Source: a virus (Duplodnaviria > Caudoviricetes). Taken from it: DNA of 56,801 nt. How positions within the stretch are numbered: position 1 is the first letter of the stretch; every line of letters begins with the position of its first letter. The position numbers and the translations under genes are program-made. The notes beneath the pieces are model-generated. The model was not told the DNA's origin, ran no database searches, and saw only the letters and a program-made list of their open reading frames with translations. This document shows, piece after piece, positions 1 through 56,801 of this stretch. The DNA lies in IMG/VR virus record IMGVR_UViG_3300037504_000230, positions 1 to 56,801 of that record, one strand, 5' to 3'.

Positions 1-216
1 CGTCAGATTGCTCACGGTGGCCCACGAGAGGTTGCCGCCGCCATCCGTGGCCAGGACCTGGTTGGCCGCGCCGTCCACATCGGGTAGCGCCCAGATCTGG
101 TCGGCGGTCAGCGCCGGGGCCTCGAATCCGACATAATTGGAGTTGCCCACATCGTAGAAGCGCAACTCGCTGCCGCCACGCAGTTGCTCATTCCCGTTGA
201 GTATCAGCCCGCCGAA
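1..216. repeat. Terminal direct repeat, left copy (matches 56586-56801); implies a circular or terminally redundant unit of 56585 bp
   Basis: Base-by-base match to the window end with only two mismatches (positions 1 and 89); 90-216 is an exact 127-bp match. Confidence 0.95.
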
Positions 217-603
217 TGTTGGAGTGTCTGTGGTTTCAAGGTCTTGATTGAGTGTACTGTTGCCGTTCAGTGTTAGTGTGTTAGTATTAAGGTCTACTGT
301 GCCGCCACTACTAAATATTAAGTCCGCATCGGGGAGTGTCAAGTCGCGGTCCGCTGTTAGCGCGGCGCTAATCGTTAGTTGGTCGCCGCCCGTAACATCC
401 TCGATAATGTCGCTTGAGGTAATAGAGCTAGAAGAATCCCAGACCGCTAAGCGTCCGGTGATGCCGTTGCCCGTCACGCCCGGAACGACGGTGCCGCCGC
501 CTCCACCCTCGCCGACTTGCCGCTCCTGTGTCAGTAACTGCTCTAGCTCACGGTCAAGCGCGTTTACCCGTTCGGTGAGTTGCGCCTCAAAGCGTAATGT
601 CAT
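1..603 (-). CDS. N-terminal part of the long tail fibre (continues across the junction into 56585..53328; ~1286 aa in total)
   Basis: ATG at 603 overlaps the end of the upstream baseplate gene; open frame MTLRFEAQLTERVNALDRELEQLL...LRFYDVGNSNYVGF is in frame with the 53328..56750 ORF. Confidence 0.85.
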   Translation of the reverse strand, partial: MTLRFEAQLTERVNALDRELEQLLTQERQVGEGGGGGTVVPGVTGNGITGRLAVWDSSSSITSSDIIEDVTGGDQLTISAALTADRDLTLPDADLIFSSGGTVDLNTNTLTLNGNSTLNQDLETTDTPTFGGLILNGNEQLRGGSELRFYDVGNSNYVGFEAPALTADQIWALPDVDGAANQVLATDGGGNLSWATVSNLT

Positions 604-20146: not shown

Positions 20147-20380
20147 TCATATCACTGCACTCCCCAGGTGCTCCTCTACGTCATCGACTAAATCCCGCCA
20201 CCGTATCCGCAGTAACTCGCGGCCTAAGTCACGCGCGCGCTGGCCGTTGCGGTCCTTAAACTCAATATACGGTATACCGCAATGCACCACGACGCGCGCG
20301 CAGGTGCAGCCGTCGAGACGGATCATGCCGTCCGCGCGGATGTGGGCGTGTTCGATGGCTGTTGCGCGGCCGTCAGTCAT
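20147..20380 (-). CDS. Small hypothetical protein, possible Com-like regulator
   Basis: TAATG-coupled to the portal gene; CTC..HC..IEFKD loosely like the Com IEIKC motif. Confidence 0.55.
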   Translation of the reverse strand: MTDGRATAIEHAHIRADGMIRLDGCTCARVVVHCGIPYIEFKDRNGQRARDLGRELLRIRWRDLVDDVEEHLGSAVI

Positions 20381-22356
20381 TAGAAATTCCCTCGCTTATC
20401 CATACGCGTGCGCTCCAAACGACAGTCACAATTCCAGCCACCACACTCTAGCACTTGTGTTTGCGGTAGCCATCCCGACCTCAGCCACTCGCGGCCCGTA
20501 TGCACCTGGCCGTCAAGGCGTAGGCAGTCTGCGCAGTGCTCGATTGTACCCCCTAGCCGCCAAACATAGTTTGCTTCCAGGTCGCTACGTACTGTCGCCT
20601 GATTCGCCAGCGCCATGGCGCTCATTAACCACAGTGTCACGCGCGCAGCCAGGGCTCCGGGTTTTACGTCACCCTCATCGTCTTCAAAGTTGCCCGCATA
20701 TATATCCTCCTTGAGACGCGGAACAGAATCCAGGTTGACCTGCTGGTATTTCTGAATCTCTAGCCAGTCATCATTATTAAGTTCTTGTATAGGCTTACCT
20801 GACGCACGGAGGTACAGCGCCAGCGAGACGCTACCGATAAGTGCGGTTAGCTCGTCCTCAAACTCCTCTTCTGTGATTTCGCCCTCGGCGGCGCGCTCGG
20901 CTAGGTCGGCCAGGTTGTCGCTATAGCCCGCCAACACCTCGTCGGCGCTGGCGTTTCCCGTCGTAGGGACAAATGGATCGACTTGGTTAACGCGCACCTG
21001 TAGGGCAATCTCATCCCGCTCCGGCTCCGGCGGTAGTCCTAACAGCTCGCGGTCCTCCTCGCGTGTAGATGGGTAGGAAACTAACGGATCGCGGGATAGC
21101 GTTTGTCTTGCCTCCGCGCGCGCCCTGATAATCTCGGCTTGCTCTTCATCGCTCATATCAATGATTGACGGCCAGCGCCAGGCGTCAGAGTCCTCATCAT
21201 AGGTCCCGACATCGTAGCTATCGGGCGGCTCTGGTAACGCGCCTATCCCGATAAGGCGATCAATGAATGGCCGCAGGATGTTTGGCTCGGCATGCGTCTC
21301 CTGTCGCTGCGCAATGTGGCCCGCCCACTGGCGCGTGTCCTCGCGCGCGCTCGCTAATTCACCCGCTGCGCTGCCGGTGAGGATGCGTTTAGGAATACGG
21401 GTTGCGGAACTTATGAGGTCCAGCTCACTATCAATATTTCCAGAGACGTCTGGCACGTTCTCTTGGCCGACATCCATCACATCCATGTTGCCATAGCCGA
21501 CTTTAATAAGGCGCATCATGCCATCAGCGTACTCCTGGATTGCGTCTAGGAAGTCGTCATTGTCAGTCGTTAGTTTATATCCCTCACCTGGCTTAATTAC
21601 GAGGCCCTTACGCATATTAAGCCACGCGGCCTCGGCGGCACCGCCGTGGTATTTGAGTAGGTCCACGAGATACATCAGGCATGATTCGAGGCGCGGCGTC
21701 CCATAGACCTCTGAGGTATCGCGATTCTCGGCAATGTGCAAGATGCGCGTCCAGTGGTAAACACCCAGCTCGCTATCACTGTCGCCCGCGGCCAGGCGGA
21801 TTTTATAGCGCTCTGGGAGACCATAGCGGGCGCTACGTCGGTCTTTATTCCACTCAATATTAACAACGTCGCCTTCCCAGAACGGGCGCAGATATAGGAT
21901 GTCGTCGGCGCCTGCCTGCTCTAGCGGGTCTGCACTGCCCTCACCCTCGGCTAACGCCGTGCCGACGATCACGCCGCCATACGACCCGATACCGCTAATA
22001 CGATCCGCACGACTTAGGACAGACCATGCGCGCAGGCGCTCAGATAGCTCACCCCATGCTCTGACAAACTCGGTATTAACTTCGCCGCCTTCTGTGATAG
22101 CAGGCGGACGCTTCCAGGTATCATCGGCAGGCAGCGAGACAATGGCATGCGCGATGCCACCCTGGCGATACCAGAGATAGTAGATGTCCTCATCGGGCGA
22201 CTTGTAATATCCCAGCGTGCCGAAATAGTCACGCTGTAGCCCATGCCCGTAAATGCCGTTGAGGTACTGCTGATATACGCGGCGGAATGAGTGTTCTAAG
22301 TTGGCAACTAACTCGCGCGCCCGCGCCTCCTCATGTGTAAGTTCTTCTACTACCAT
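20380..22356 (-). CDS. Portal protein (DUF1073-type) fused to a C-terminal MuF-like minor head domain
   Basis: RYGLPERY, HWTRILH, ATRIPKRILTG..GELAS portal motifs; C-terminal W.LG..EHC.DC..LDG...CGGWNCDC. Confidence 0.85.
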   Translation of the reverse strand: MVVEELTHEEARARELVANLEHSFRRVYQQYLNGIYGHGLQRDYFGTLGYYKSPDEDIYYLWYRQGGIAHAIVSLPADDTWKRPPAITEGGEVNTEFVRAWGELSERLRAWSVLSRADRISGIGSYGGVIVGTALAEGEGSADPLEQAGADDILYLRPFWEGDVVNIEWNKDRRSARYGLPERYKIRLAAGDSDSELGVYHWTRILHIAENRDTSEVYGTPRLESCLMYLVDLLKYHGGAAEAAWLNMRKGLVIKPGEGYKLTTDNDDFLDAIQEYADGMMRLIKVGYGNMDVMDVGQENVPDVSGNIDSELDLISSATRIPKRILTGSAAGELASAREDTRQWAGHIAQRQETHAEPNILRPFIDRLIGIGALPEPPDSYDVGTYDEDSDAWRWPSIIDMSDEEQAEIIRARAEARQTLSRDPLVSYPSTREEDRELLGLPPEPERDEIALQVRVNQVDPFVPTTGNASADEVLAGYSDNLADLAERAAEGEITEEEFEDELTALIGSVSLALYLRASGKPIQELNNDDWLEIQKYQQVNLDSVPRLKEDIYAGNFEDDEGDVKPGALAARVTLWLMSAMALANQATVRSDLEANYVWRLGGTIEHCADCLRLDGQVHTGREWLRSGWLPQTQVLECGGWNCDCRLERTRMDKRGNF

Positions 22357-29895: not shown

Positions 29896-30885
29896 TCATA
29901 CCTCCTTATCCTTGAATACATGCTCTATCGACTTCCAAAACCCTACGGCGTTCGCCGCCCACGGGTTTGTCACCAGTCTGCTATTGGGATGCCATGCCCG
30001 TAACCGCGTCAATATCGCCGATGCGCCACCGCCGCTCACAAGGTGATGTCTGACGCTGGCGCGGTCACTCACCTTGTTGTCTAACTCGGCGATAACTAGC
30101 GTGCTAAGCGTGTCTAGCGCGGCGTTAATCGTTTTTACCGCGCTGACCTCCTTATCGTAAACCGTGAACGTCTGACGGCGACCGACTAGGGCCGCCTCGG
30201 CGCCCGCGTAGTCCAGGCGGCGCCCGTGGTCGCTGGCGAACACTTGTATTGAGCGCACGATGTCGCTCATGCCGTGCTCGATGCTGCCAGACGAATCGCC
30301 GACATAGCGCACACCAGCGCCTTCGTAATGGTCCACGGTCGCGAAGTCGGTTGTATACGTGCCGATGTCTGTTGCAACTGTTCGCCCGCGCAGTGGATGC
30401 GACTGGCCCTCATCGTCTACTGTGACGCTGAAGTAGCTCCCGACCGGCTGTGGCAGAATTAGCGGGATAGCTACGCGTACATCGTGCTCCGTACCGTTAT
30501 ACGTGAATCGATAGCGGCCCTCAAGGTCGCGGCGCGCCGCTGCCTTATTTGCATCGTTATAATAGAGCGTTGGAAGTCCGACGCACAGCGCGACATCACC
30601 GCGTATGCCTAGCCTACCTAACGCGGTTAGCATCAGGACCCGCATGAGGTGCGCATCCCGGCGCTCACCGAAGTGCATCAGCGCATCGGTAGCGGCCTGC
30701 TCGCGTGCGTAGTCGCCGATAAACCACGACTGGTCGCCGAGCGCTAGGGTGTCGCCGCCGTTACCTAGCGTGAAGTGGATGTCGTGGGCGGGCGCGGCGG
30801 TGGACGGGAAGTGCACGAGGCGCTTGCCGTCGTATGCCTTGACGTAGCCGTTGCCGATGTCAAGGCCGACTTTAGTCGTTGTCAT
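29896..30885 (-). CDS. parM: ParM/StbA actin-like partition ATPase
   Basis: GLDIGNGYVK (phosphate 1), VGLP, PQPVG, DIGTYTTD (phosphate 2), VSGGGA, ANAVGF. Confidence 0.88.
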   Translation of the reverse strand: MTTTKVGLDIGNGYVKAYDGKRLVHFPSTAAPAHDIHFTLGNGGDTLALGDQSWFIGDYAREQAATDALMHFGERRDAHLMRVLMLTALGRLGIRGDVALCVGLPTLYYNDANKAAARRDLEGRYRFTYNGTEHDVRVAIPLILPQPVGSYFSVTVDDEGQSHPLRGRTVATDIGTYTTDFATVDHYEGAGVRYVGDSSGSIEHGMSDIVRSIQVFASDHGRRLDYAGAEAALVGRRQTFTVYDKEVSAVKTINAALDTLSTLVIAELDNKVSDRASVRHHLVSGGGASAILTRLRAWHPNSRLVTNPWAANAVGFWKSIEHVFKDKEV

Positions 30886-31648
30886 GGCTGACCTCCTCTG
30901 TCGGGCGCAGGCGCAATGTATCGCGCCAGTCAATACCCAACTCATCCAGTGGGATAGTAGTGGAGTAACTCACCTCACAGGCCCGCGCGTACCACGTCGA
31001 CTGCGTCGCCCTCGGCCTCTTTGAGCACCACCACGCCCGCCCATCAGCATCAACCGACCATGCCACCGCGTCCTCCGGTGCCTCATCCCAGTCGGGTGCG
31101 TACTCGCCAAGCGGGTCCTGGCGCACCGTTACCATGCGGCAGCGGCAGTTCGTAAACGGCCAACCCGATACGCCAAGGCGGGTTGGCTCATCAGCTGCCC
31201 GGCGGTCCCACGCGGCCCAGGCTGCGTCCAGCCGGCTATAGACGGCGGTCTTGACATCACACCCGCCGCAGCGCACATAGGTCTGGCCTGGTATACCATC
31301 GGCGTATGCTGTTCCTCCGCAGAACGGACAGCGCTTATGCTCGTGCTCACCTAGTGGATTTGCGCTCTCCAGTGCTTCGATCATCGCAGCCTCGACCTCG
31401 TCAAGGCGCGTCTGGGCGCGGAGTAACTCAACGGCAGCCTTGCCTAGCCTAATATCTATACGCAGAGCGTAGTCCATAACCACGCTGATATTATGCGTTA
31501 TGGCCCTCGCGTCTTGATCCTCCATTGAATCGGCCAAATCTAGAACAGCGTCCTTCATGTCGCCAGTATCGGCGCGCACTTTAGTCAGCGCCATTTGCGC
31601 GTCGGACATTGCGTTCTGTGTTGCGCTCATACCTAGGACCTCAGTCAC
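30872..31648 (-). CDS. Mosaic protein with a Lar-like zinc ribbon
   Basis: CPFCG..C..C..AAWDRR; C-terminal PDW..APE.A..W..DADG.A.W module. Confidence 0.65.
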   Translation of the reverse strand: MTEVLGMSATQNAMSDAQMALTKVRADTGDMKDAVLDLADSMEDQDARAITHNISVVMDYALRIDIRLGKAAVELLRAQTRLDEVEAAMIEALESANPLGEHEHKRCPFCGGTAYADGIPGQTYVRCGGCDVKTAVYSRLDAAWAAWDRRAADEPTRLGVSGWPFTNCRCRMVTVRQDPLGEYAPDWDEAPEDAVAWSVDADGRAWWCSKRPRATQSTWYARACEVSYSTTIPLDELGIDWRDTLRLRPTEEVSHDND

Positions 31649-40006: not shown

Positions 40007-40303
40007 TCATTTACTCCTATCTAGCAACTTATACTTTTCCCATAACTCTAGCCATCGCTCCCTTAGCGATTGGCCCGGCTTACGCGCCTCACAGCACTCT
40101 TTAAAGAAATCCCTAGCATAGAATCTCCCGCGTTGTGGTGGCGGGTATTTTTCCTCTTCGCAGTCTGCGACTAGCGCAATGATGCCAAATAAATCCCGAA
40201 ATGACGGCACCCAAGTTGTGCCATTGTTAAACAGCACTTTAACCCAGTGCTTACCGCCATATTTACCGAATTCCTCTTTCGTGATCTCTTTTATTTTAGC
40301 CAA
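40007..40303 (-). CDS. Hypothetical protein (lower GC)
   Basis: Overlaps the methylase stop; Lys-rich ORF. Confidence 0.6.
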   Translation of the reverse strand: MAKIKEITKEEFGKYGGKHWVKVLFNNGTTWVPSFRDLFGIIALVADCEEEKYPPPQRGRFYARDFFKECCEARKPGQSLRERWLELWEKYKLLDRSK

Positions 40304-41507
40304 TCTCGTTCCCCCACGCACGCCATCCCTCTCGTTCATTCCTGGCGAAAAGTTCAATATATGGGCCTTCGTAGCACCGCTCTATGTCAGCGTAGACACC
40401 ATGCGGTTTCGCGCTATGTCGCGTCACATCGGCCTCTATGATGCTGTCTAGCTTTTCGCTAGGGTGCATACCCGACCCACGCACGCCGATTAAGAGCAAC
40501 TCATGCCGCGTGCGCACAAACCATCCCATACCAGGCGCGCGGCCCTTAACCCACACACGACTGGCCTTATACTCGAATCCCCATGTCTTCATAACTTCCA
40601 AGGCTTCTGGAATTAGTGGTGATGTAGCCCATAAAAAAAGCACGCTGCGATCCATTGCTAAGTCTCGGATCGGTAGCATGCATAATTCCTTTTGACTCAT
40701 AGTTGGGTAGTGACTCTCCGCACTCTGATTGAATCCGCTGTTGCTATATTGCCATGGCGGATCCGCGTACAGTACGCGGTATTTCCCCGTAGGCGGTTCT
40801 GGTTCTGGTATGCTGGCGCGTTGCCGCTTCTGGATTTCACGTTTAGCGCTTGCAGGCGAACGCTTGCCACCCACCACCTCTTTAATGAGGTCTGGATTAT
40901 CGGGCGCGGCCTCGGCTAGTTCTACGGTATCTTTCTTAGTCAGCCTCACATCCGCGCCAAGGATCGCGTCACGCGCCCCCGGCCCTGCGACGCTGGCTAT
41001 ATTGTCCACTGCCTCAGCGTAATCGGCGTCGCGCCTAACCGTGGGCGCGCTCACCCCGGTTTGGGCTGCTATGCGGTCGGCGGTGTGTAAGCTCTGATCA
41101 TTTTGATCAGAGCTTTTCCCCTTCATGGACCCTGCCTCATGTGGGCTTTTCTTTTCCTCAGCATACAACTTCCCCCTTAAGTACGCGCTCTGCTGCGGCG
41201 TCAGGTTCCGTCGCCCCAACTGGTTCAGGATCACCCACCGTTTCGCAGCCTCAAGTCCTGGCAATGAAACGGTAACGATCTGGTAATCAAGCCCATAGTT
41301 TTTCGCAATGCCTAGCCGGTTATGCCCGTCCAGGATCGCGCCGCGCTCACGCCACACCACAAGCGGATCGCGTATACCCTCACTGAGGATGTTCGCCTTT
41401 AACTGCTCATGCTCTGACTTGCGTAAAGGCGGTATAAGTTCCTGAATCTCGGTAACCACGGCGGGGTGATCGCCGAGTACTTCACCGGTGTCCCTGTTGA
41501 CTATCAT
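40296..41507 (-). CDS. ParB-N domain fused to MT-A70 family N6-adenine methyltransferase
   Basis: LDGHNRL, QLGRRNL; YADPPW, HYPTM, LFLWAT, HSAKP, IELFAR. Confidence 0.9.
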   Translation of the reverse strand: MIVNRDTGEVLGDHPAVVTEIQELIPPLRKSEHEQLKANILSEGIRDPLVVWRERGAILDGHNRLGIAKNYGLDYQIVTVSLPGLEAAKRWVILNQLGRRNLTPQQSAYLRGKLYAEEKKSPHEAGSMKGKSSDQNDQSLHTADRIAAQTGVSAPTVRRDADYAEAVDNIASVAGPGARDAILGADVRLTKKDTVELAEAAPDNPDLIKEVVGGKRSPASAKREIQKRQRASIPEPEPPTGKYRVLYADPPWQYSNSGFNQSAESHYPTMSQKELCMLPIRDLAMDRSVLFLWATSPLIPEALEVMKTWGFEYKASRVWVKGRAPGMGWFVRTRHELLLIGVRGSGMHPSEKLDSIIEADVTRHSAKPHGVYADIERCYEGPYIELFARNEREGWRAWGNEIG

Positions 41508-46051: not shown

Positions 46052-46130
46052 TTTAACTCCCCTCCCGCTTTCCCCGGACTTGGGACCGGCCTCGGTGCGG
46101 TTAGAGTCGGCCCTTGCGGGCCAGGACTCT
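46052..46130. repeat. 79-bp structured direct repeat, copy 1
   Basis: Identical to 46415-46493. Confidence 0.95.
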
Positions 46131-46414: not shown

Positions 46415-46493
46415 TTTAACTCCCCTCCCGCTTTCCCCGGACTTGGGACCGGCCTCGGTGCGGTTAGAGTCGGCCCTTGCGGGCCAGGACTCT
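46415..46493. repeat. 79-bp structured direct repeat, copy 2
   Basis: Identical to 46052-46130. Confidence 0.95.
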
Positions 46494-46722: not shown

Positions 46723-46768
46723 CGTTCTCTCCCTTCGGGCCTCTGTGGCCCTGATTAGTTTTATCCTC

Positions 46769-46864
46769 AACTGTCTATAGTATACCACGCGCATGTATAA
46801 ATCACGTGTAAAAAACCTATCAAACATGTATAAAATAGCCGTTTCTTGTATAAGTTTTTATACA
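46769..46864. repeat. 96-bp AT-rich promoter/iteron repeat, copy 1
   Basis: Matches 47815-47910 (77-bp identical core); TATACT -10 on the minus strand; TGTATAA iterations. Confidence 0.9.
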
Positions 46865-46865
46865 C

Positions 46866-46879
46866 GTGACATCTGTCAC
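46866..46879. promoter_or_regulatory. Palindromic operator GTGACA-N2-TGTCAC
   Basis: gtgacatctgtcac; degenerate copies at ~47773, ~47796 and ~47935. Confidence 0.55.
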
Positions 46880-46892
46880 TTTGGGTCCCGGC

Positions 46893-47689: not shown

Positions 47690-47743
47690 CGTCGTTCTCT
47701 CCTTTGGACCTCCCGGCCCTGTGTTTTATTCTTAACTGTCTAT

Positions 47744-47772
47744 AGTATACCATACTATAGAAAATAGTCCAA
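47744..47772 (-). promoter_or_regulatory. Early promoter
   Basis: TTGGAC-17 bp-TATACT followed by the conserved ATAGACAGTT. Confidence 0.7.
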
Positions 47773-47814
47773 TGGACAAATGTCACTTAGTTCGTATTAC
47801 ATCTGTCACTCCCT

Positions 47815-47910
47815 AACTGTCTATATTATACATCGCGCATGTATAAATCACGTGTAAAAAACCTATCAAACATGTATAAAATAGCCGTTTCTTGTATAAG
47901 TTTTTATACA
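47815..47910. repeat. 96-bp AT-rich promoter/iteron repeat, copy 2
   Basis: Matches 46769-46864; the -10 here is TATAAT. Confidence 0.9.
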
Positions 47911-48014
47911 TCGGCTGTACAAGCCCTTATACACGTGACATCCCGCGTCGTTTTAGCGACATCCGACACGTGCGCAGGCGTGGCGGCCTATGCTATAATG
48001 AGGGAAACAGTGAC

Positions 48015-48043
48015 TTGACAGCGTTTATATATTGCTATATAAT
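48015..48043 (+). promoter_or_regulatory. Consensus sigma70 promoter of the divergent plus-strand unit
   Basis: Perfect TTGACA-17 bp-TATAAT. Confidence 0.85.
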
Positions 48044-48079: not shown

Positions 48080-48397
48080 TTGACAATAAATAGCATCGGT
48101 CCGGTATACCGGCGTGGCCAGGAGCACGCCGACGTATTCGCTGCCTACGGGCAGCAGCCGCGCGGGTCCCGCGGGACATGGGTCCTGGAGACGCTGGCCC
48201 TCGGTATGCGCGCCAACGCTAGCGTGCCCGACGCCCGACCGCAGCGTGACGCCAGCGAGACAAAACGCCTGGCCGCTGCCGTTGCCGACGAGCTAGAGGC
48301 ACGCGGGCTAGTTATGGCCGCTGACGGCGGGCAGGGCGAAACCTCTGGCGAGGGCGACGCGGCGGACGTATATGGAGGGATGTTCGATGAGCTCTGA
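48080..48397 (+). CDS. Small DNA-binding protein, possible ParR-like adaptor or repressor
   Basis: GGAGG RBS plus TTG; D.FA...QPRGSR..WVLETL RHH-like helix pair; flexible acidic tail ending MFDEL. Confidence 0.55.
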   Translation: MTINSIGPVYRRGQEHADVFAAYGQQPRGSRGTWVLETLALGMRANASVPDARPQRDASETKRLAAAVADELEARGLVMAADGGQGETSGEGDAADVYGGMFDEL

Positions 48398-48638
48398 GTA
48401 CTGGCGACGTAAGGCGCAGCTATTGGAATTCAGTCTGCGCCTGGCGATTGAGCAATATCTGGAATTGGAACGCCTGGCGCGCGCGGCGGCGGAGCGCATC
48501 TACGCCAACGGGTCTGGCTATGAGGAATTCGACGCGCTGTTGGACTATTTCGCACCGCTAACCGATAAAAGCGGGAGCGTCACAGGCGGTAAAAACGCCG
48601 GTTTAGATGAAAATGACACACACCGTTTTAACGGTTAG
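48387..48638 (+). CDS. Hypothetical protein
   Basis: GGAGG RBS; overlaps the upstream stop. Confidence 0.55.
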   Translation: MSSEYWRRKAQLLEFSLRLAIEQYLELERLARAAAERIYANGSGYEEFDALLDYFAPLTDKSGSVTGGKNAGLDENDTHRFNG

Positions 48639-48679
48639 CGGTTAGTGGGTATATTTTTAGCATAAAAGGAGGTGTATTT

Positions 48680-48874
48680 ATGTTTAGAGTACGCAAAGAC
48701 AATCGGAGAGAGGCGTTCGTAACAGTGCGTTTAACGCGCCAGGAGCGTGAGCGTCTAAACGAGGTAGCGCGTCAGGCAGGGTACAGCCTGAGCGACTTCA
48801 CCCGGCGCGCGTGGGCGATGTACGCAGAGCGTGTGCGGTCTAAAGGCAAGAGTGCGGAGGTTAACGAGCAATGA
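48680..48874 (+). CDS. Ribbon-helix-helix protein (MobC/NikA-like)
   Basis: VTVRLTRQERERLNEVARQAGYSLSDFTR; AAGGAGGT RBS. Confidence 0.8.
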   Translation: MFRVRKDNRREAFVTVRLTRQERERLNEVARQAGYSLSDFTRRAWAMYAERVRSKGKSAEVNEQ

Positions 48875-49188
48875 AAAGATCACTTGCAACACTCTGGGTC
48901 ATCGGCTTACTTATAATCGCCATCACCCTGTCCACGGCCTATGCATTCCGCAATACACCCGCCAGCGTCACGGCACGCGGGCAGGCGGCTATCGACTACG
49001 CGGCGGCGTCAGCTATCCGCTCCGACACGCTGATGTCGTGGGCGCTGGTAGCCGTGATGCTGCTGGCTATAGTTATAGTGCTGGTCGAGTTAGTCGGCGT
49101 AATCGTGGCCGTCGTGTGGCTGCTGCGTGGCCGCTGGCAACAGGACGAGCAGATACAGCGTAAGTCTACAGTCACGCGGGAGTCGTAA
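48871..49188 (+). CDS. Two-TM membrane protein
   Basis: Two long hydrophobic segments; ATGA coupling. Confidence 0.75.
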   Translation: MKRSLATLWVIGLLIIAITLSTAYAFRNTPASVTARGQAAIDYAAASAIRSDTLMSWALVAVMLLAIVIVLVELVGVIVAVVWLLRGRWQQDEQIQRKSTVTRES

Positions 49189-50609
49189 TGCTAGCGTCCC
49201 TCGACCCGCGCTATAAAGAGAAACGGCGACTCCTGCAAGAGTTGGCCGACTACCTCAACGGCGCTATGTCGTCTCGTGGCCCGTTCCGCGGCCGCACGCC
49301 GTTCCCGACCCTTGACGCCCTCCGTCCGCCGCGGACCGTGATCGGCCCGCGCGTGGGCGAACTGCGGGTTTACGTCGGCGCGCATGCAGAACGCCTGCAC
49401 CGCACCTTAACCAAGTCCGGCCTTGCTAACACGCGCGCCATTTTCTCAGAAGTGGGCGCGTGGGACCTAGAGGGCCGCGATCCGGAGGTGGTCTGGGACG
49501 GCGACGCCCTCGTGCTCCGCGCCACGTGGCCCGACGCGCTGCAATTCAACGACATCCCACTGCGGGTCGCTGGCCGCGTATCCGGCATGCACCCGTCGTC
49601 TGGTCGCGCGCTCATCGTGGGCCTTAGTCACACCGAGGTCGTCGCCGTGGCCCTAGATGACACCGCGCCACACGCACTCATCGGCGGCATCACAGGCTCC
49701 GGTAAGTCCTGGCTGCTCAACTCGATAGGCTACCAACTGAGTCAGGATCCACGCGCTCGGTTCGTACTTCTGGACGGCAAGGGTGGTCAGGGTATCGGTA
49801 ACCTCAATGGCCTACACGGCCAAGTCGGTCCGGTGGCCCGCACGGACGAGGCGCAACTTAACGCGCTATGCTGGACGCTGCGCGAGGTCAACCGGCGCAA
49901 TGAGGCCCTGGGCGATGCGGCGCTGGGTAACGGCGACGTTACGGACTTCGGTCCGATCTACGTCATTTACGACGAGTTCCAGGCGCTACTCAGTAGCAAC
50001 CGCGACGCCGCCGACATCGTGCGCGTGCTGGCGCAAGAGGCGCGCTCCGCGAACGTGCACCTCGTGTTTGCGACGCAACGTCCACGTGAGGATATGTGGG
50101 GCGGGACGGGCGCCAAGTTCCAATTCGACATCCGCATTGCATTGCAACTCGACGAGTACGGCAGTCGCATGGTCCTAGGTTCCGGGCACTCTATGAGCGC
50201 CACAGGCCTACTGGGCAGCGGTGACGCCATTGTCGCCGCAAACATCGAGAACTGCGCAACCCGCATCCGGCGCGTACAGTGCTGCTATGTACCGTCTGAG
50301 CAGATCCGCGAGCGCACGCGGGATGAGAACGGCAACCCACGCCACGAACTTAAGTTTACACGCTGGCCCGACTTCGATGCCGGACAGTTCCGCGAGGACG
50401 CACGCGGTGCGCGCGCGCAACCGTTCACGCGAGAGGAGTTGGCTGTCGCTGTGCATATCGCCTGCGAGGGCCACGGGTTCCCGACGGCAATGGATGATAT
50501 GGAGGCCGCCCTGGGTTATCGTATGGGCTCTGGGCGCTTCGAGAGACTGAAGGAGGCCGGTGCTGATATGCTGGCCGTGATGAGTAAATTAGAGGAGGAT
50601 AAATCATGA
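49188..50609 (+). CDS. FtsK/SpoIIIE family DNA translocase (TraB-like)
   Basis: PHALIGGITGSGKS Walker A, LLDGKG, VIYDEFQ Walker B, ARSANVHLVFATQRP, LLGSGD. Confidence 0.88.
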   Translation: MLASLDPRYKEKRRLLQELADYLNGAMSSRGPFRGRTPFPTLDALRPPRTVIGPRVGELRVYVGAHAERLHRTLTKSGLANTRAIFSEVGAWDLEGRDPEVVWDGDALVLRATWPDALQFNDIPLRVAGRVSGMHPSSGRALIVGLSHTEVVAVALDDTAPHALIGGITGSGKSWLLNSIGYQLSQDPRARFVLLDGKGGQGIGNLNGLHGQVGPVARTDEAQLNALCWTLREVNRRNEALGDAALGNGDVTDFGPIYVIYDEFQALLSSNRDAADIVRVLAQEARSANVHLVFATQRPREDMWGGTGAKFQFDIRIALQLDEYGSRMVLGSGHSMSATGLLGSGDAIVAANIENCATRIRRVQCCYVPSEQIRERTRDENGNPRHELKFTRWPDFDAGQFREDARGARAQPFTREELAVAVHIACEGHGFPTAMDDMEAALGYRMGSGRFERLKEAGADMLAVMSKLEEDKS

Positions 50610-51244
50610 GAGGGATATGGGGCCCTGGGCCTTACCAGTCCCAGTCGCGACAGACGGAGATCGGGCAAGTTATCGCGCAAGCCGCCGTCGCCGTGCTGAT
50701 GCTACTGGTCGCGGGCGCGCTAGCGTGGCTGCAAGCGCGTGTGTTAGGCATTGCGTTCGGGATGCTGCTGTTCGCAGCGGGCCTCGGTATCGCGGGCTGG
50801 CTCATTTATAGAGGCGGCGGCGGGAGCCCGCCCAACGCTATGGCTACTACTGCCGCTGTCGTGCTATTCATAGTCGGTTTGACGCTAGCGTTATGGCCGC
50901 CGCGCTCGCTCGGCACCTTGGCTGAAGGGCGATTATGGCTAGTGACCCCGCGGCCGTTAGCCGGGCTCGTGAAGGTCGCTAGTTTCGCCATGCCTTACAG
51001 TGCGGTGGCGTTGCTGAGCACGGTCAACCTCGCGGCTATCGGCATTTCGCTATTAACGGCGTTACGCCTCGTGGTCGAGGTCGTGTTCCCGAATTTGCTA
51101 AACAGCATCCGCGCGCTCGGCGGGCGGTTCACGGGCCTGGGTAAGTGGTGGCATGGTATACGCTATCCCAGCGACGCCGACGAAGAGGATGACGGTCCTG
51201 AGTCGGGCGGGATCCCGCGACGTGGGACGAATGTCGCGGGATGA
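50606..51244 (+). CDS. Multi-pass membrane protein
   Basis: About 4-5 hydrophobic helices; GGAGG RBS and ATGA coupling to the FtsK gene. Confidence 0.75.
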   Translation: MRGIWGPGPYQSQSRQTEIGQVIAQAAVAVLMLLVAGALAWLQARVLGIAFGMLLFAAGLGIAGWLIYRGGGGSPPNAMATTAAVVLFIVGLTLALWPPRSLGTLAEGRLWLVTPRPLAGLVKVASFAMPYSAVALLSTVNLAAIGISLLTALRLVVEVVFPNLLNSIRALGGRFTGLGKWWHGIRYPSDADEEDDGPESGGIPRRGTNVAG

Positions 51245-51399: not shown

Positions 51400-51431
51400 C
51401 CCGGCAGGCTATCTACACCTGCCGGGTTTTT
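51400..51431 (+). terminator. Intrinsic terminator at the convergence of the plus unit and the tail operon
   Basis: CCCGGCAGG-N9-CCTGCCGGG-TTTTT. Confidence 0.8.
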
Positions 51432-51958: not shown

Positions 51959-53331
51959 AACTCCTCCTCAATGATAAGTTTCCCTTGGAATTTGATACTA
52001 AATACCCTCTTGCTTACCTCACCTCTTTCATATGCGCCGATGTCTGGCGCTGCGCTACGCTGCCGCCCCCGGATGTCATCGCGCGGCATGTGCGCCGAAT
52101 CCGCCATGCCTAATGCTGCGCTCGCAGGGCCCGGCCTACCGCACTCGGCTAGCGCAAGGAATGCCTCGCGTATTGTACTGTATCCTCCGGCAAATCCGTT
52201 GCCCAGCCAGCGCGGGACGGCAAGACTATCCGGGTCCGGCAATTGCGGATCGTCGATAACGCGGCTGGCGTCGTCACCCGCCTCTAGGAACGCGCTGTCG
52301 CTAGTCGGGAATGGCTGGCCGCTATTATAGAATAGATTATTATCAAAATGCACGGGACTAGCCTCTGACGACGCACAGCACGAGAAGTCGCCCATGTTAC
52401 CAATGGGGTCCGACCAGGTATTGCTACAGATTTCGATGTACTCGCTCGGCTGGTTATCGCCCACCTCGAATATTGAGAAACCAATCTCGCTGGCGTCCAG
52501 TGGCCCGACAACTGTATTGGCACGGATCGTAATATTACGGGATCCACGTACACAGAACGGCGACCGCATTCTGTGACTGCCACACCCTAGGAGTAGATTA
52601 TTCTCAATAATCACGCCGTCAGCCTCCCACTGCGCAATGCCATCCTCGCCGATTAAGATAAAATGCTTATGCGGTGCGCCTTGGTAGCTCATAAATATAT
52701 TGCGCCTAATTTTGATGTCGCGCGGTGGCCCGTCGTGTGGTCCTGAATTTTTAACGACAATAAATGAGTAGGCGTTCGGCGTCTCGCGTCCACTAGCCGC
52801 GTAGTCATTAAAGAAGACGTTGTCTTGGATAGTGACGTTCTCGCTGTTGTGGTTTACGTCGATGTGCTCATCGCTGGGCCCTTGATTATAGAAGATATTG
52901 CTCTCAATAACGATGCTCCGCTGGCCTCGCCCGCCTATTTTCACGAGGTCATTATTGCGCACATCGTGAATTATATTATTGCGCAGCGTGATATCGTTAC
53001 CGGATATGAATACACCAAATGGATTGTCTGAGTCGCCGCGTGTGATTTCGAATCCCTCGACAATGATGTTGCGCGCCTCAGTATATAGGCGCACCACGGC
53101 ATGCTCATAGTCCGTTTCAATCCGCGCGTGATAGGGATGCTCTGCTCTAAGGCGCAGCGGTGCGCTATATGCGCTATTAATCCATAGCGGATCACGGTAT
53201 ATCCCATCTCGCACAATGACAGTCCCGCCGTCCGGGACGAGCGCCTCTGCCGCGTGATCAATCGTTGCCCACGGTGCGTTTGCGCTACCGTCATTATTAT
53301 CATTGCCGTCAGTTGCTACGTAATACGTCAT
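51955..53331 (-). CDS. Right-handed beta-helix protein (putative tailspike/depolymerase)
   Basis: YYVATDGNDNNDGS..APWATI, GTVIVRDG.Y, repeated ITLRNNII rungs, PDIGAYE. Confidence 0.8.
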   Translation of the reverse strand: MTYYVATDGNDNNDGSANAPWATIDHAAEALVPDGGTVIVRDGIYRDPLWINSAYSAPLRLRAEHPYHARIETDYEHAVVRLYTEARNIIVEGFEITRGDSDNPFGVFISGNDITLRNNIIHDVRNNDLVKIGGRGQRSIVIESNIFYNQGPSDEHIDVNHNSENVTIQDNVFFNDYAASGRETPNAYSFIVVKNSGPHDGPPRDIKIRRNIFMSYQGAPHKHFILIGEDGIAQWEADGVIIENNLLLGCGSHRMRSPFCVRGSRNITIRANTVVGPLDASEIGFSIFEVGDNQPSEYIEICSNTWSDPIGNMGDFSCCASSEASPVHFDNNLFYNSGQPFPTSDSAFLEAGDDASRVIDDPQLPDPDSLAVPRWLGNGFAGGYSTIREAFLALAECGRPGPASAALGMADSAHMPRDDIRGRQRSAAPDIGAYERGEVSKRVFSIKFQGKLIIEEEL

Positions 53332-56300
53332 GCTGCCTCCAATTCCATAATGCGATTTTCCAGTTGAATAACGCGCTCAAATAGCGCTCTCACGGTATCA
53401 ATTGTGAGTTCGCTGATGCCACGCAACGACATCATATAGTTACCATCACGGCCATAGCTGATTACGCGCGTTTCCTCTAAAATAGGCCGTGCATATTCAA
53501 TGAATTGCCCGAAGCGATCACGCAATCCTGGCACCATTTGCGCACGCAATCCGTGTAGCAGTGCGAGGTCATCGTAGTCATCCCAGTCATTTTCTGTGAC
53601 GCTACCCGCAATGTAGATGTCACCGTTGCCTTTAAAAACTTGGCGTGCATCACCGTTATTTGTGATGGCGACAATATTTGCATTATTACTCAACGCGGCA
53701 ACGCCCGTGCCATTCTTTTTTGAACCAGTTAGCTTGATTGCGCCGTCCGCGCCATCATCATCAGCCGTGCTTTCACTTTGGCTGATTGCTAAAACCGTCA
53801 CGCCTTCCGCAACCGAGTTTCCGCTAATGCCATTAATTTCTAGCCCGCCGCTTGGAATTGCCTTTTCGATTGCGCCGAAAATGTCCGTTTCCGTGCGTGT
53901 CGTGATGCCGTGTGCTACATCGGTTGAGTCGCGGAAGGCTAGAATTTGATCATCGTTTCCTTTCTGGTCGATTGTGATACCGATAGTCATATCTGAGTTG
54001 GAGCCAGAGTTGATATACCAAGAATGATCAATCATAAAGGCATCTTCGCTCTCGTCCCATTTTGCGGTTGGCGTGCCCGTTACATTCACGGTCCACAAAT
54101 TAATGTCGCGGTCAGCAGCGTCGCTACTGAACTCAATACACTGCTCAGATGTATCACCTTGGTCCAGGAAAAGTACCGGTTGCGCGCCGGTGCTAGAGGA
54201 TTGATCGACGTGGAGCTGGCCAGATGGCGATGTTCCGCCGCCGAGTATTATGTCGCCATTGGGGTCGAATAATGCTGTGATCGTTCCTGCACTTCCGCGC
54301 TTTATAATTAAATCACGCGCTGCCAAATCTGATTCGCGATATGTAATTACAAGGTCCTCATCAGAATCAGTAATTATTGACGCATCTGTACTCCCTGCTC
54401 TTGTGAATAATATTCCGCGTGAGTTATTGCCGCTAGTGGCCACCTCAATATAATTATCGGTAGTATCAGCATCACCGCCGACTTGAAGCAGGTTGCCTGG
54501 TGTAGCGCCGACACCGGCATAGCCGGATGAATTAATGCGCACAACCTGCGATGTATTGCCCGACTCAATTCTGAATACATCAGTGCCGGTTGTTTGGTCT
54601 CTGATGAAAAAATCATCGCCGATATCCCCACGCATGCCTGCGTACCATTTTTGAGCACTGTCGTTTTCGTACCAAATATAAGATGTTGAATTTGCGCCAG
54701 TCGCCTCAAGCTTCAAAACAACATTTGTGTTTTCTATTTCAAATATCGTTGCTGGCGATGTAGTTCCAACACCAACTCTGGATACATTTGTAATCTCCAA
54801 ATAATCATTAGTAGAGTCAAATTCAATTGTCGGCTCGCCTGCGCCGCCAGTGATTGACGCACCATCCGCCATGTCAATATCGGAGCCGGATAGCACATTG
54901 AGAGAATTGGCCGTCATCGTAAAATCCGCTGCGCCCGCAATCACATACTGGATTGTGTCGTCTGCACTGGCGTGGAGATAGGTATCCGCATCAGTGTCGA
55001 TGATTAAATCGTTGCCATTCAGATCAATATTTGAGCCGCTGGCGCACTCAAATTTGTTGGCTGTGAAAGTAAAATCGGCGGCAGATGCAATCACCACGTC
55101 AATGTCATCGTCGGCATTTGAGATAAAGCCGCTATCATTGTCGTTGTCAAACACGATACTTTGGCCTTGCATTTGTAGTTGTGTTTCAAATACAATATTT
55201 GCGCCAAATGTAGCGCGGAGTACATTATTGGAATATAATTCTATCTCACCCTCTGAGGAATCGAAGATGATATAGGTATCGCCACTCACGCCAACGACGC
55301 CGTCGTCAGGTACAAATAAATCCTCTAGCGTAATTTGTCCGCTGGCGCTGGTTTGCAGGATTGTATCTGTGTCTGTAGTCCCGTCTGAAGTTGTGGTGAT
55401 CGCGTGCGCGTGCGTTGCCGCGCCAACGGTATTAGCCGTGCCGGTCGTGAGTGTCGTCGGCGTGCCTAACGTGAACGTGCGGTTGGCGCTGATGTCACCG
55501 CCGCCTGTAAGCCCATTCCCTGCCGTGAGTGTCACCGAGGTATGGTTGATGTGTTCGTTCGCCACAAACCCCACGAGGCTATCGTGATTGACGGTATCGC
55601 CGCCGCCGCTTTCGTGCGTGCTTGCATGTGCTGGTAAATCGCCGACTTGAATTGCACTTGGAATATAGCGCGTACCATCACTGCGCAGGTATGAACCTGC
55701 GCCGGGGTCGTCGGCGTGAATGATTCCTTTGCCAGTTGGCAAAAGCAAATCGCCCACTTCTATCGTAATATTACCGCCAGATGCAATCGTGAATGATTGT
55801 ACATCATTAGGCCAAAATGCGATATTTGCTGTTGTGCCAGTTACAATATTCAATCCAGCACTTGTGTCGCTATTTGCAAATATTCTAGCTGAATCAGCAA
55901 TGGCGCTTCCGGCTGTAGTGTATCCGGAACTAAAAACATCAACGAGCAATCCTGCCGCATCCGCCAGTAACCTGAGTTGTATTCGTGCCGCCGTGTCGTT
56001 TGTCGCATTCTCGCCTTGTAGAATAGTAGCGGCGTTTTGATCGCGCCGTGCCACAAATATAGATCCTGGCGCAACAATACCTATGCCAAAATTGCAATCG
56101 CTAAAATACGCATAATCCGTTGCGCCGCTGCTATCAAATCCAAGGCGTGCGGTCGCTGCGCTGTTGCCGATCCAGTCTGCATCTTCTACCGTTATGCCGC
56201 TGATACCAGAGAAGGCGAAAGTTCCGGCCGCGTTGACGGTCAGGAGCTCATTGCCGCTTATCCCGAACTCAGTGCCGTCCTCGCCATAGAAGTCCGACGC

Positions 56301-56801
56301 CGTAACGCCGCCGTCGAATTGCCCATTCCCATCACTATCAATCCGCGCGACCTCGGCGCTGCCACTATCAAGTACACGCACACGGTCAGAGCCGCCAGTA
56401 TCGCCGAGGTGCGCATTAATATATCCGCTAGAGGAGTCGAATTCTATCCGCACATCGCCACTGCGTCCAATATACGTATCATCATTCTCCAAAATAAGGT
56501 TGCCGCTGTCGTCGAGGGTGACGGCGCTATCCTGTATCGTATCTGTGCCATCCCAGCGGGCGATACGGTTATCGGTACCGAGACCGGTCAGATTGCTCAC
56601 GGTGGCCCACGAGAGGTTGCCGCCGCCATCCGTGGCCAGGACCTGGTTGGCCGCGCCGTCCACATCGGGTAGCACCCAGATCTGGTCGGCGGTCAGCGCC
56701 GGGGCCTCGAATCCGACATAATTGGAGTTGCCCACATCGTAGAAGCGCAACTCGCTGCCGCCACGCAGTTGCTCATTCCCGTTGAGTATCAGCCCGCCGA
56801 A
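53328..56801 (-). CDS. Long tail fibre (main part; 5' end lies at 1..603)
   Basis: Gly/Thr/Asp-rich; VGVGTTSP...LHV fibre repeats; C-terminal coiled coil resembling a degenerate chaperone domain. Confidence 0.85.
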   Translation of the reverse strand, partial: FGGLILNGNEQLRGGSELRFYDVGNSNYVGFEAPALTADQIWVLPDVDGAANQVLATDGGGNLSWATVSNLTGLGTDNRIARWDGTDTIQDSAVTLDDSGNLILENDDTYIGRSGDVRIEFDSSSGYINAHLGDTGGSDRVRVLDSGSAEVARIDSDGNGQFDGGVTASDFYGEDGTEFGISGNELLTVNAAGTFAFSGISGITVEDADWIGNSAATARLGFDSSGATDYAYFSDCNFGIGIVAPGSIFVARRDQNAATILQGENATNDTAARIQLRLLADAAGLLVDVFSSGYTTAGSAIADSARIFANSDTSAGLNIVTGTTANIAFWPNDVQSFTIASGGNITIEVGDLLLPTGKGIIHADDPGAGSYLRSDGTRYIPSAIQVGDLPAHASTHESGGGDTVNHDSLVGFVANEHINHTSVTLTAGNGLTGGGDISANRTFTLGTPTTLTTGTANTVGAATHAHAITTTSDGTTDTDTILQTSASGQITLEDLFVPDDGVVGVSGDTYIIFDSSEGEIELYSNNVLRATFGANIVFETQLQMQGQSIVFDNDNDSGFISNADDDIDVVIASAADFTFTANKFECASGSNIDLNGNDLIIDTDADTYLHASADDTIQYVIAGAADFTMTANSLNVLSGSDIDMADGASITGGAGEPTIEFDSTNDYLEITNVSRVGVGTTSPATIFEIENTNVVLKLEATGANSTSYIWYENDSAQKWYAGMRGDIGDDFFIRDQTTGTDVFRIESGNTSQVVRINSSGYAGVGATPGNLLQVGGDADTTDNYIEVATSGNNSRGILFTRAGSTDASIITDSDEDLVITYRESDLAARDLIIKRGSAGTITALFDPNGDIILGGGTSPSGQLHVDQSSSTGAQPVLFLDQGDTSEQCIEFSSDAADRDINLWTVNVTGTPTAKWDESEDAFMIDHSWYINSGSNSDMTIGITIDQKGNDDQILAFRDSTDVAHGITTRTETDIFGAIEKAIPSGGLEINGISGNSVAEGVTVLAISQSESTADDDGADGAIKLTGSKKNGTGVAALSNNANIVAITNNGDARQVFKGNGDIYIAGSVTENDWDDYDDLALLHGLRAQMVPGLRDRFGQFIEYARPILEETRVISYGRDGNYMMSLRGISELTIDTVRALFERVIQLENRIMELEAA
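56586..56801. repeat. Terminal direct repeat, right copy
   Basis: Matches 1-216. Confidence 0.95.

Follow-up and report, generated by a model that had tools for sequence, protein, structure and literature searches.

The window analysed here is a stretch of 56,801 nucleotides from a tailed phage (IMG/VR virus record IMGVR_UViG_3300037504_000230), and the system in question is a four-gene operon on its plus strand at positions 48680-51244. The operon encodes a ribbon-helix-helix (RHH) protein, a small membrane protein, a soluble ATPase of the FtsK/SpoIIIE family, and a polytopic membrane protein. It is one case of a conserved three-part module in uncultured tailed phages, which consists of a soluble FtsK-type motor, flanking membrane proteins, and a local regulator. 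It can be tentatively hypothesized that the operon is a split FtsK-type pump for double-stranded DNA (dsDNA), which carries or clears the episomal prophage across septa and in this way secures its inheritance. The features of the operon and its end are as follows:

48680..48874, plus strand: RHH protein of 64 amino acids, NikA/MobA-like (Pfam NikA-like PF21983), probable autoregulator
48871..49188, plus strand: small membrane protein of 105 amino acids with two hydrophobic spans (Kyte-Doolittle) and a basic C-terminal tail
49188..50609, plus strand: FtsK/SpoIIIE-family ATPase of 473 amino acids without a transmembrane (TM) segment, made of an N-terminal domain, a RecA-like motor, and a C-terminal three-helix domain
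50606..51244, plus strand: polytopic membrane protein of 212 amino acids with 4-5 hydrophobic spans and an acidic C-terminal tail
51400..51431, plus strand: hairpin with a T-run, read from the letters, a probable intrinsic terminator that closes the unit

The open reading frame (ORF) map and the GC skew agree that 48.0-51.2 kb is the only plus-strand unit of the genome. The skew is positive in the 48-50 kb bin only and negative in the other 27 bins, with a value of -0.003 at 50-52 kb. The consecutive stop and start codons of the four genes overlap by 4, 1, and 4 nt. The terminator has a GC-rich stem of 9 bp (CCCGGCAGG/CCTGCCGGG, 51400-51426) around a 9-nt loop, followed by TTTTT at 51427-51431; it was not listed by the hairpin scan because the scan was limited to loops of 8 nt. 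The initial annotation, made before any database search, had described a sole plus-strand unit that ends in four translationally coupled genes (an RHH regulator, a 2-TM protein, an FtsK/SpoIIIE ATPase, and a multi-TM protein) and is closed by a terminator, and this layout was recovered in full.

The FtsK-type ATPase

The ATPase passed the Pfam FtsK_SpoIIIE model (PF01580) with 46.5 bits (cut-off 24) and matched phrog_1358 at 8e-31 and PHROG 3551 at 1.6e-14. Its Walker A (G167-S174), Walker B (D262-E263), and TQxP (A295-TQRP299) motifs are conserved in the family, which confirms the intact Walker A/B and ATQRP motifs reported earlier. R316 is also conserved in the family and aligns with the R of FtsK's TRIAF, which we take to be the arginine finger of FtsK. 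The hydropathy scan found no hydrophobic span in the protein and PF13491 was not matched, in agreement with the earlier remark that the ATPase lacks an obvious TM anchor.

A word-indexed search returned only five full-length relatives, with identities of 62, 37, 32, 30, and 33%. An exhaustive phmmer search of 1.84 billion representatives gave 67 below 1e-30, and the best 150 representatives are mostly 420-500 amino acids long and align nearly from end to end. The nearest clusters in the ESM Atlas are 50-100% viral. Remote relatives of the ATPase occur in 146 records of isolated phages, all with less than 60% identity and none covering 80%; the core identity of these phage proteins is 27-33%, and they fall into other families. 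Remote relatives in 211 plasmid records likewise stay below 60% identity, and none covers 80%. Judged by sequence comparison, the ATPase appears to belong to a distinct and almost wholly metagenomic family of 420-500-amino acid proteins.

The class of the motor was read from profile, hhalign, and fold rankings in place of a labelled phylogeny. A ten-member family profile searched against the PDB sequences ranked FtsK first (9e-35, 123 bits), followed by EccC (2.5e-32, 115 bits), YukB (3e-22), TcpA (1e-16), and HerA (1e-5 or weaker). An AlphaFold 2 (AF2) model of the ATPase, built with a 120-row alignment, reached a predicted local distance difference test (pLDDT) value of 93.5. In Foldseek, this model matched the FtsK motor first (3e-22, 356 columns), ahead of TcpA (7e-16), EccC (7e-15, 301 columns), and HerA (about 1e-7). 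The hhalign comparison with Bacillus FtsK (7e-37, 275 columns) covers the end of the alpha and all of the beta part, while that with pIJ101 Tra (6e-19, 191 columns) covers the ATPase core only. FtsK/SpoIIIE (2IUS, 2IUU, and 6T8B) is therefore the best match by profile, fold, and hhalign, and the Walker A/B motifs, TQRP, and the aligned arginine are kept. Both the alpha and the beta motor of FtsK are matched, as the 356 Foldseek columns reach beyond beta alone, and the Pfam FtsK_alpha model found no match on the protein.

None of the NCBIfam models passed on the ATPase. The TraB model NF041214 scored 17.4 bits against a cut-off of 800, and the top match, EccCa (TIGR03924), scored 53 bits against 509. 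PADLOC gave partial matches in the P-loop region only, to mad8 (64 bits, profile positions 14-73 of 314 only) and SspH (50 bits), and its HerA models scored 24 bits or less. These profile and model-based rankings argue that the motor is FtsK-type, nearer to FtsK than to TraB, and not HerA-type. Membership in the TraB family was thus not borne out for the ATPase of this operon, which the initial annotation had called TraB/Spd-like. Grouping with HerA or defence ATPases, named at that time as an outcome that would speak against DNA transfer, was not seen either. When the ATPase domain is considered by itself, EccC-type secretion ATPases are still close, yet they have three such domains. FtsK itself carries a 4-TM domain fused to the motor via a linker; here, there is neither fusion nor linker, and the membrane parts are encoded by separate genes. 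In contrast to FtsK proper, the ATPase of the window is phage-borne and only 473 amino acids long.

The C-terminal domain of the ATPase

The ATPase contains LGYRMGSGRFERL, which had been likened to an FtsK gamma helix. Within the close subfamily, no other C-terminal stretch is as well conserved as the one that holds this sequence (consensus LGYGMGSxRIDERL, or LGYxMGSxR). A BLASTP alignment with Bacillus FtsK continues through this stretch and places LGYRMGSGRFERL over IGYNRAARLIEEM, inside the Pfam gamma domain of FtsK. In contrast, Pfam FtsK_gamma (PF09397) had no match at E<=1 on residues 385-473, and the hhalign alignment with Bacillus FtsK ends at residue 401, before the C-terminal domain. 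When modelled alone (pLDDT 91), this domain has three helices, the last of them long, and no wing, unlike the gamma winged helix of FtsK. Foldseek returned 0 matches at E<=0.001 for the isolated domain, and the weak top ones include homeodomains and LysR N-terminal domains. Because gamma was not confirmed by Pfam, hhalign, or Foldseek, the region was named a conserved three-helix domain, and the model suggests that it may be a helix-turn-helix. The conserved motif of the earlier claim stood, and a relationship with the gamma domain is possible through the one BLASTP extension.

The regulator, the membrane proteins, and their conservation

The RHH protein matched PF21983 at 2e-8 with 34.7 bits (cut-off 27). 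Pfam RHH_1 stayed under its cut-off, as did the weak likenesses to NCBIfam MobA, RelB, MbpA, and TraJ, and the PHROG repressor families reached about 2e-3 at best. The RHH protein is not conserved at other loci of the ATPase family; two of them (L005 and L012) hold an unrelated 67-amino acid protein in its place. The 105-amino acid membrane protein had no Pfam or PHROG family match. For the 212-amino acid protein, no homologue was found among 7853 scored candidates from a 5.8-billion-protein collection or in the ESM Atlas, and PF13491 was not matched. When the ATPase was modelled in complex with both membrane proteins, the score was 0.00 against a mark of 0.32, a value that argues neither for nor against a complex because the partner's own fold was uncertain.

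The loci that bear the ATPase family were drawn from IMG/VR and JGI metagenomes. The broad alignment (A2) was too diverse for scanning these loci, and therefore narrower alignments were used. Sequence past the ATPase is present in 13 lineages; two others (L008 and L009) stop at the ATPase and were excluded from the downstream count. The gene after the ATPase encodes a predicted TM protein in 12 of the 13 lineages, the exception being L108. By the same crude criterion, a TM span occurs in 49 of the 272 ORFs of at least 100 amino acids in these loci, which gives the excess a binomial P of about 1e-8 if the lineages are independent. Small TM ORFs also stand directly upstream of the ATPase in the window, L003, L005, L009, L012, L018, L108, and L181. 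The downstream proteins of L005, L007, L010, L011, L012, and L013 form one family. The coupling of membrane proteins to the motor, which the initial annotation had proposed for the operon, is thus supported by diverse TM proteins that are kept with it as a module.

In the exceptional lineage L108 (1368-2468, record G004), the ATPase frame has 366 amino acids, matches window residues 49-381, and is possibly frameshifted or truncated; this genome is otherwise complete. Pfam searches of 20 neighbour proteins from the other loci matched only RadC-like and pentapeptide-repeat genes. The RadC-like gene, which encodes a JAB domain (7.7e-38), lies two genes past the ATPase module in L011 (10559-11230) and is also present in its near-twin L010. 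A holin or lysis role of the membrane proteins was rejected, because they accompany the ATPase in 12 of the 13 lineages and the likely lysin of the phage (Peptidase_M23, 27423-27977 on the minus strand, 1e-11) sits far from the operon.

Link with ParM and plasmid carriage

The record is listed in IMG/VR as linear and 85% complete. A direct repeat of 216 nt, with 2 mismatches between the copies, forms the two ends (1-216 and 56586-56801). The reading frame of the tail-fibre gene (603..1 and then 56801..53328, minus strand) runs on in phase across the joint of these ends. Because of this end repeat and the tail-fibre frame, the genome is most likely complete, circular or terminally redundant, and about 56.6 kb long. 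The minus strand carries nearly every gene. Its structural set includes tail genes, tape measure, major capsid protein, protease, portal, and TerL, so packaging is already served, as had been stated earlier. The non-structural set includes a ParM-like gene, Erf, a DnaB-like helicase, ribonucleotide reductase, a DnaD/O-like initiator, and a methyltransferase with a ParB domain. The gene that serves as a marker of plasmid carriage is the following:

29896..30945, minus strand: ParM-like partition ATPase (phrog_691 at 1.1e-38 and 1e-40)

Neither tyrosine (PF00589) nor serine (PF00239) recombinases were matched in the record. With closed ends, a ParM-like gene, and no match to these recombinases, the phage looks, from its gene content, like a plasmid-prophage, and the plasmid carriage assumed by the initial annotation is supported. 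That annotation also stated that there is no relaxase or type IV secretion system (T4SS). The relaxase family PF03432 has no match anywhere in the record, and ten further non-structural ORFs have no relaxase or recombinase match in Pfam, which agrees with this statement; other relaxase families and T4SS parts had no specific search. The Chloroflexota host proposed at that time found no support and equally no exclusion, as the nearest isolated phages of TerL are only 33-45% identical and their hosts are scattered. Among sequencing runs, the only strong DNA match listed is X1, labelled tidal flat metagenome and possibly the source sample, and no RNA run was listed.

To place the operon among its relatives, nine IMG/VR records that bear the family were compared, from G000 (the window) to G008. 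A ParM-like gene (phrog_691) was found in four of them (G000, G001, G004, and G007), and these are exactly the four with terminal repeats, three by IMG/VR class and G000 by the comparison of its ends. In three of these records, the ParM-like gene and the ATPase share a strand. A gap of 891 nt separates the end of the ParM-like gene from the ATPase downstream of it in G001, and in G004 and G007 the pair spans the joint of the circle at a distance of no more than about 2.7 and 1.5 kb, respectively. Portal, capsid, and tape measure genes mark G007 as a genuine tailed phage, and its TerL belongs to another family (phrog_38). The module and ParM therefore occur together across phage types, on backbones that are unrelated. 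PF03432 was absent from all four records searched for it. Tyrosine recombinases (PF00589) occur in three of the nine records (G003, G007, and G008) and serine recombinases (PF00239) in two (G003 and G006). Of the co-occurrence with ParM and absence of integrase that had been proposed as a check in related phages, the first was therefore found in four of the nine records, with ParM less than 3 kb from the ATPase in three of those four, and the second failed in G003, G006, G007, and G008. In passages of PMC11526630, Bacillus plasmid prophages are described as using ParM-like partition, and prophage FtsK/SpoIIIE homologues are thought to regulate DNA segregation.

Proposed role in inheritance of the phage genome

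Since the module is common to uncultured phages and often stands beside a partition gene, its most likely task is to move DNA of the phage itself across septa. According to the proposed mechanism, the 473-amino acid protein would act as a motor with a family-specific C-terminal three-helix domain, whose probable contact is either DNA or a conserved host partner. The 105-amino acid and 212-amino acid membrane proteins would tether this anchorless motor to the membrane or septum, and they may line a channel. The RHH protein, as the product of the first gene, would shut the operon's own promoter. In the carrier state, the pump would move or clear episomal copies of the genome across closing or closed septa, and daughter cells or compartments would inherit the phage genome as a result. 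Hexamer formation, the DNA substrate, tethering, and autoregulation are what we infer in this scheme, and so are the time at which the operon is expressed, the direction of pumping, and its purpose.

Several points weigh against inheritance as the role of the operon. Recombinases occur without a ParM match in G003, G006, and G008, which all bear the module, and G002 (51% complete) and G005 (52% complete) have neither a ParM nor a recombinase match. In the window itself, ParM lies 18 kb from the operon and on the opposite strand. The 212-amino acid protein matched the downstream family of the other loci only at E=2 in hmmsearch, and hhalign aligned just the motif WP...G.LW over 19 columns with a probability of 0.8%; by this comparison, homology between the window's membrane partners and those at distant loci could not be demonstrated. 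Host FtsK normally clears septa unaided, which leaves the need for a private pump unexplained. To our knowledge, the FtsK-like ATPases of mobile elements with a proven role (TraB, TcpA, and TdtA) all act in transfer and not in inheritance. Septal clearance and cell-to-cell transfer are not told apart by the present evidence, and in a filamentous host, septal inheritance and spread to neighbours would be the same act.

FtsK/SpoIIIE-like genes of phages are already known, and passages of the literature mention them as accessory and offer only guesses on their role, in segregation or sporulation. Split membrane partners or a link with ParM are not mentioned for them in those passages. Searches of full texts found no paper on a tailed phage that moves by an FtsK-type pump, and none on such a split design or ParM link. 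What is new here is one family with a fixed design, a soluble motor with separate membrane proteins, which is tied to ParM-type carriage. This puts a testable proposal, that phage-plasmids bring their own septal DNA pump, in place of a vague annotation. A role of the pump in inheritance would give phage-plasmids a new tool for their maintenance. A role in spread between cells would blur the line between phages and conjugative elements and give FtsK-based DNA transfer a second, independent origin.

Alternative roles of the operon

The first alternative is transfer of the TraB/Spd kind, which was the central proposal of the initial annotation. In this case, the pump would deliver the carried genome to neighbouring cells or compartments as dsDNA, with no virion involved, and this would be a second route of transmission. 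In passages of PMC4447253, TraB is described as FtsK-like and sufficient for dsDNA transfer, and its systems have a Kil-Kor pair with TraR and a clt locus of 8-bp repeats. The spd genes, three to seven in number, are given there as diverse, overlapping, and hard to match between plasmids, and they include a pore-forming membrane protein. In pIJ101, tra, spdA, spdB, and a further ORF have overlapping ends and lie beside a GntR regulator. The operon matches this architecture: as in pIJ101 and pSVH1, an FtsK-family ATPase and overlapping genes for hydrophobic proteins are found on an extrachromosomal element together with a small repressor, whose position at the operon head recalls Kil-Kor logic. 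RHH proteins of the NikA/MobA kind are found in transfer modules, and plasmid carriage is likely. The poor matching of membrane proteins between loci is also spd-like, and the lack of sequence similarity between SpdB and the membrane proteins of the window is usual among spd proteins according to the same passages.

The differences begin with the motor, whose NF041214 score lies far below the cut-off and whose likeness to pIJ101 Tra is confined to the core and weaker than that to FtsK. The carrier is a tailed phage, whereas pIJ101 and pSVH1 are Streptomyces plasmids. Two TM genes flank the ATPase gene in the window, with overlaps of 1 and 4 nt, compared with the three to seven spd genes given for Streptomyces systems in the passages cited above. 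The Streptomyces regulator is a GntR protein (TraR/KorA), while that of the window is an RHH protein, and none of the six proteins of the plus-strand unit matched GntR.

The search for a cis site bears on both sides of this comparison. A short-repeat array, 100-200 nt ahead of the plus-strand unit, is the candidate for a counterpart of clt:

47826..47933, no strand assigned: six TGTATAA/TTATACA sites

TGTATAA occurs at 13 sites in the window compared with 4.5 expected, and 0 of 100 shuffles reached 13. Ten of the 13 copies form two arrays, four at 46794-46864 and six at 47826-47933. Both arrays sit in a duplicated 101-nt cassette before leftward genes, with promoter-like and palindromic elements, and this cassette looks like a repressor-controlled early promoter set. 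Because the arrays occupy such a cassette, an operator role is at least as likely as a clt or centromere role. The two copies of the cassette region (46758-46881 and 47723-47942, 95% identical) also contain GACAnnTGTCAC palindromes (three copies) and AACTGTCTATAGTATACCA boxes (three copies). No exact 8-mer clusters were found in, near, or after the ATPase gene, and no skewed or over-represented 8-mers like the FtsK orienting polar sequences (KOPS) were found beyond coding-strand bias (top z-score 2.3). Of 12 loci, four (the window, L002, L004, and L012) have an iteron-like array no more than 1.5 kb from the module, and the other eight have none; an array in L018 was not counted, as it belongs to a pentapeptide-repeat gene. 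In L004 (8906-9098, record G007), six 9-mers similar to GGAACTTTA lie between a primase gene and the first gene of the module, and L002 has a similar array of six at 51-192; both could be iterons, centromeres, or transfer sites. In TraB, clt is read by a C-terminal winged helix, while the window has the TGTATAA array upstream and a C-terminal domain of three helices. The C-terminal motif is conserved across distant phages, and therefore it fits poorly with an element-specific reading of clt.

Taken together, the window resembles a TraB/Spd locus in layout only: the gene order of pIJ101 is mirrored, and the TraB model, SpdB, a GntR regulator, and a clear clt are not. TraB/Spd-like transfer is therefore rather unlikely as the role of the operon. 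It is improbable to a similar degree that tailed phage-plasmids carry a conjugation-like pump, spread both as virions and as naked dsDNA, and evolved a TraB/Spd-style route independently outside actinomycete plasmids.

Superinfection exclusion or defence is unlikely. In that role, a membrane-tethered translocase expressed from the prophage would block or expel foreign DNA. Its placement at the membrane would suit this, and the operon lies in the sole unit against the direction of the genome, beside operator-rich cassettes, where morons and immunity genes often sit. The partial PADLOC matches to mad8 and SspH point in the same direction, but they cover the P-loop only, and the HerA models scored lower still. 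HerA systems pair with NurA, SIR2, or DUF4297, whereas no nuclease, SIR2, or other effector gene adjoins the ATPase of the window by Pfam and PADLOC. The link with ParM would not be expected of a defence gene, and we know of no exclusion system with an FtsK-type motor.

A role in the lytic cycle, in which the pump would help with the entry, organisation, or handover of phage or host DNA during infection, as may hold in virulent Bacillus phages and actinophages, is likewise unlikely. Many phages, large virulent ones among them, carry FtsK/SpoIIIE-like genes (the 146 records mentioned above; PHROG 1358 and 3551), and the module of G007 is co-oriented with replication and packaging genes. The proteins of cluster J mycobacteriophages, of Bacillus and Streptomyces phages, and of Bacillus plasmid prophages fall into these same PHROGs; however, with 27-33% core identity they are other families, and that of the window has its own N- and C-terminal domains. 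The association with ParM points to the carrier state, and TerL already serves packaging.

It is quite improbable that the ATPase is a TcpA-like coupling protein, which would work with the NikA-like RHH protein as an oriT accessory and feed the phage-plasmid into the mating pore of a co-resident element. In structure, only the FtsK class ranks above TcpA of Clostridium perfringens pCW3, which has a TM-score by query of 0.47 that reflects part of the fold only and reached 1e-16 by profile; both ATPases are located on a mobile element, and the RHH protein passes the NikA-like model with weak matches to MobA, MbpA, and TraJ. In contrast, FtsK fits the ATPase better than TcpA does, the RHH protein is replaced at L005 and L012, and TcpA has a relaxase and a type IV pore as partners, whereas PF03432 is absent here and the ten further ORFs gave no relaxase match, other relaxase families having had no search.

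Export of phage proteins by a minimal type VII-like ATPase is highly improbable: EccC comes close to FtsK by profile and EccCa is the top NCBIfam match, but EccC/EssC have three ATPase domains, fused TM/FHA parts, and WXG100 substrates, whereas the ATPase of the window has one domain, is unfused, aligns with EccC over fewer Foldseek columns than with FtsK, and has two small ORFs upstream in the unit without a WXG100 or other Pfam match at E<=0.1.

Other features of the region

The plus-strand unit begins upstream of the operon with the following features:

48015..48043, plus strand: promoter-like TTGACA-17-TATAAT with 12/12 consensus matches, putative promoter at the head of the unit
48080..48397, plus strand: first ORF of the unit; the likelier start is TTG 48080 after GGGAGGGAG, chosen by eye, and the start in the ORF list is 48032
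48372..48638, plus strand: second ORF, 88 amino acids, without a Pfam, PHROG, PADLOC, or NCBIfam family match
48554..48655, plus strand: possible operator and promoter of the four-gene operon, with a 29-nt inverted repeat, heptads, and a promoter-like site; putative function

The TTG start at 48080 falls downstream of the TTGACA-17-TATAAT site. Promoter-like sites are not enriched across the 6.5-kb region (3 compared with a shuffle mean of 2.9), and because they are as frequent in shuffles, the promoter role of this site is regarded as putative. The first ORF had no passing match in Pfam, PHROG, PADLOC, or NCBIfam. Directly before the RHH gene, a promoter-like TTAACG-16-TATATT (48628-48655, 9/12 matches) is overlapped by tandem CGGTTAG CGGTTAG heptads at 48632-48645, and an inverted copy lies 70 nt upstream at 48558-48564, as read by eye. 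This arrangement would suit autoregulation by the RHH protein.

Among the minus-strand genes, the DNA methyltransferase at 40296-41507 (phrog_359 at 8e-60) has an N-terminal ParB-like part (phrog_4715 at 6e-7). The portal gene at 20380-22356 has two distant PF06381 portal-like relatives that are named 'anti-CBASS protein Acb1 family' by NCBI, and this name looks doubtful. In the leftward early region, two identical 79-nt direct repeats lie 363 nt apart (46052-46130 and 46415-46493). Both copies are GC-rich with hairpin potential and could act as a terminator or a binding cassette or encode a small RNA.

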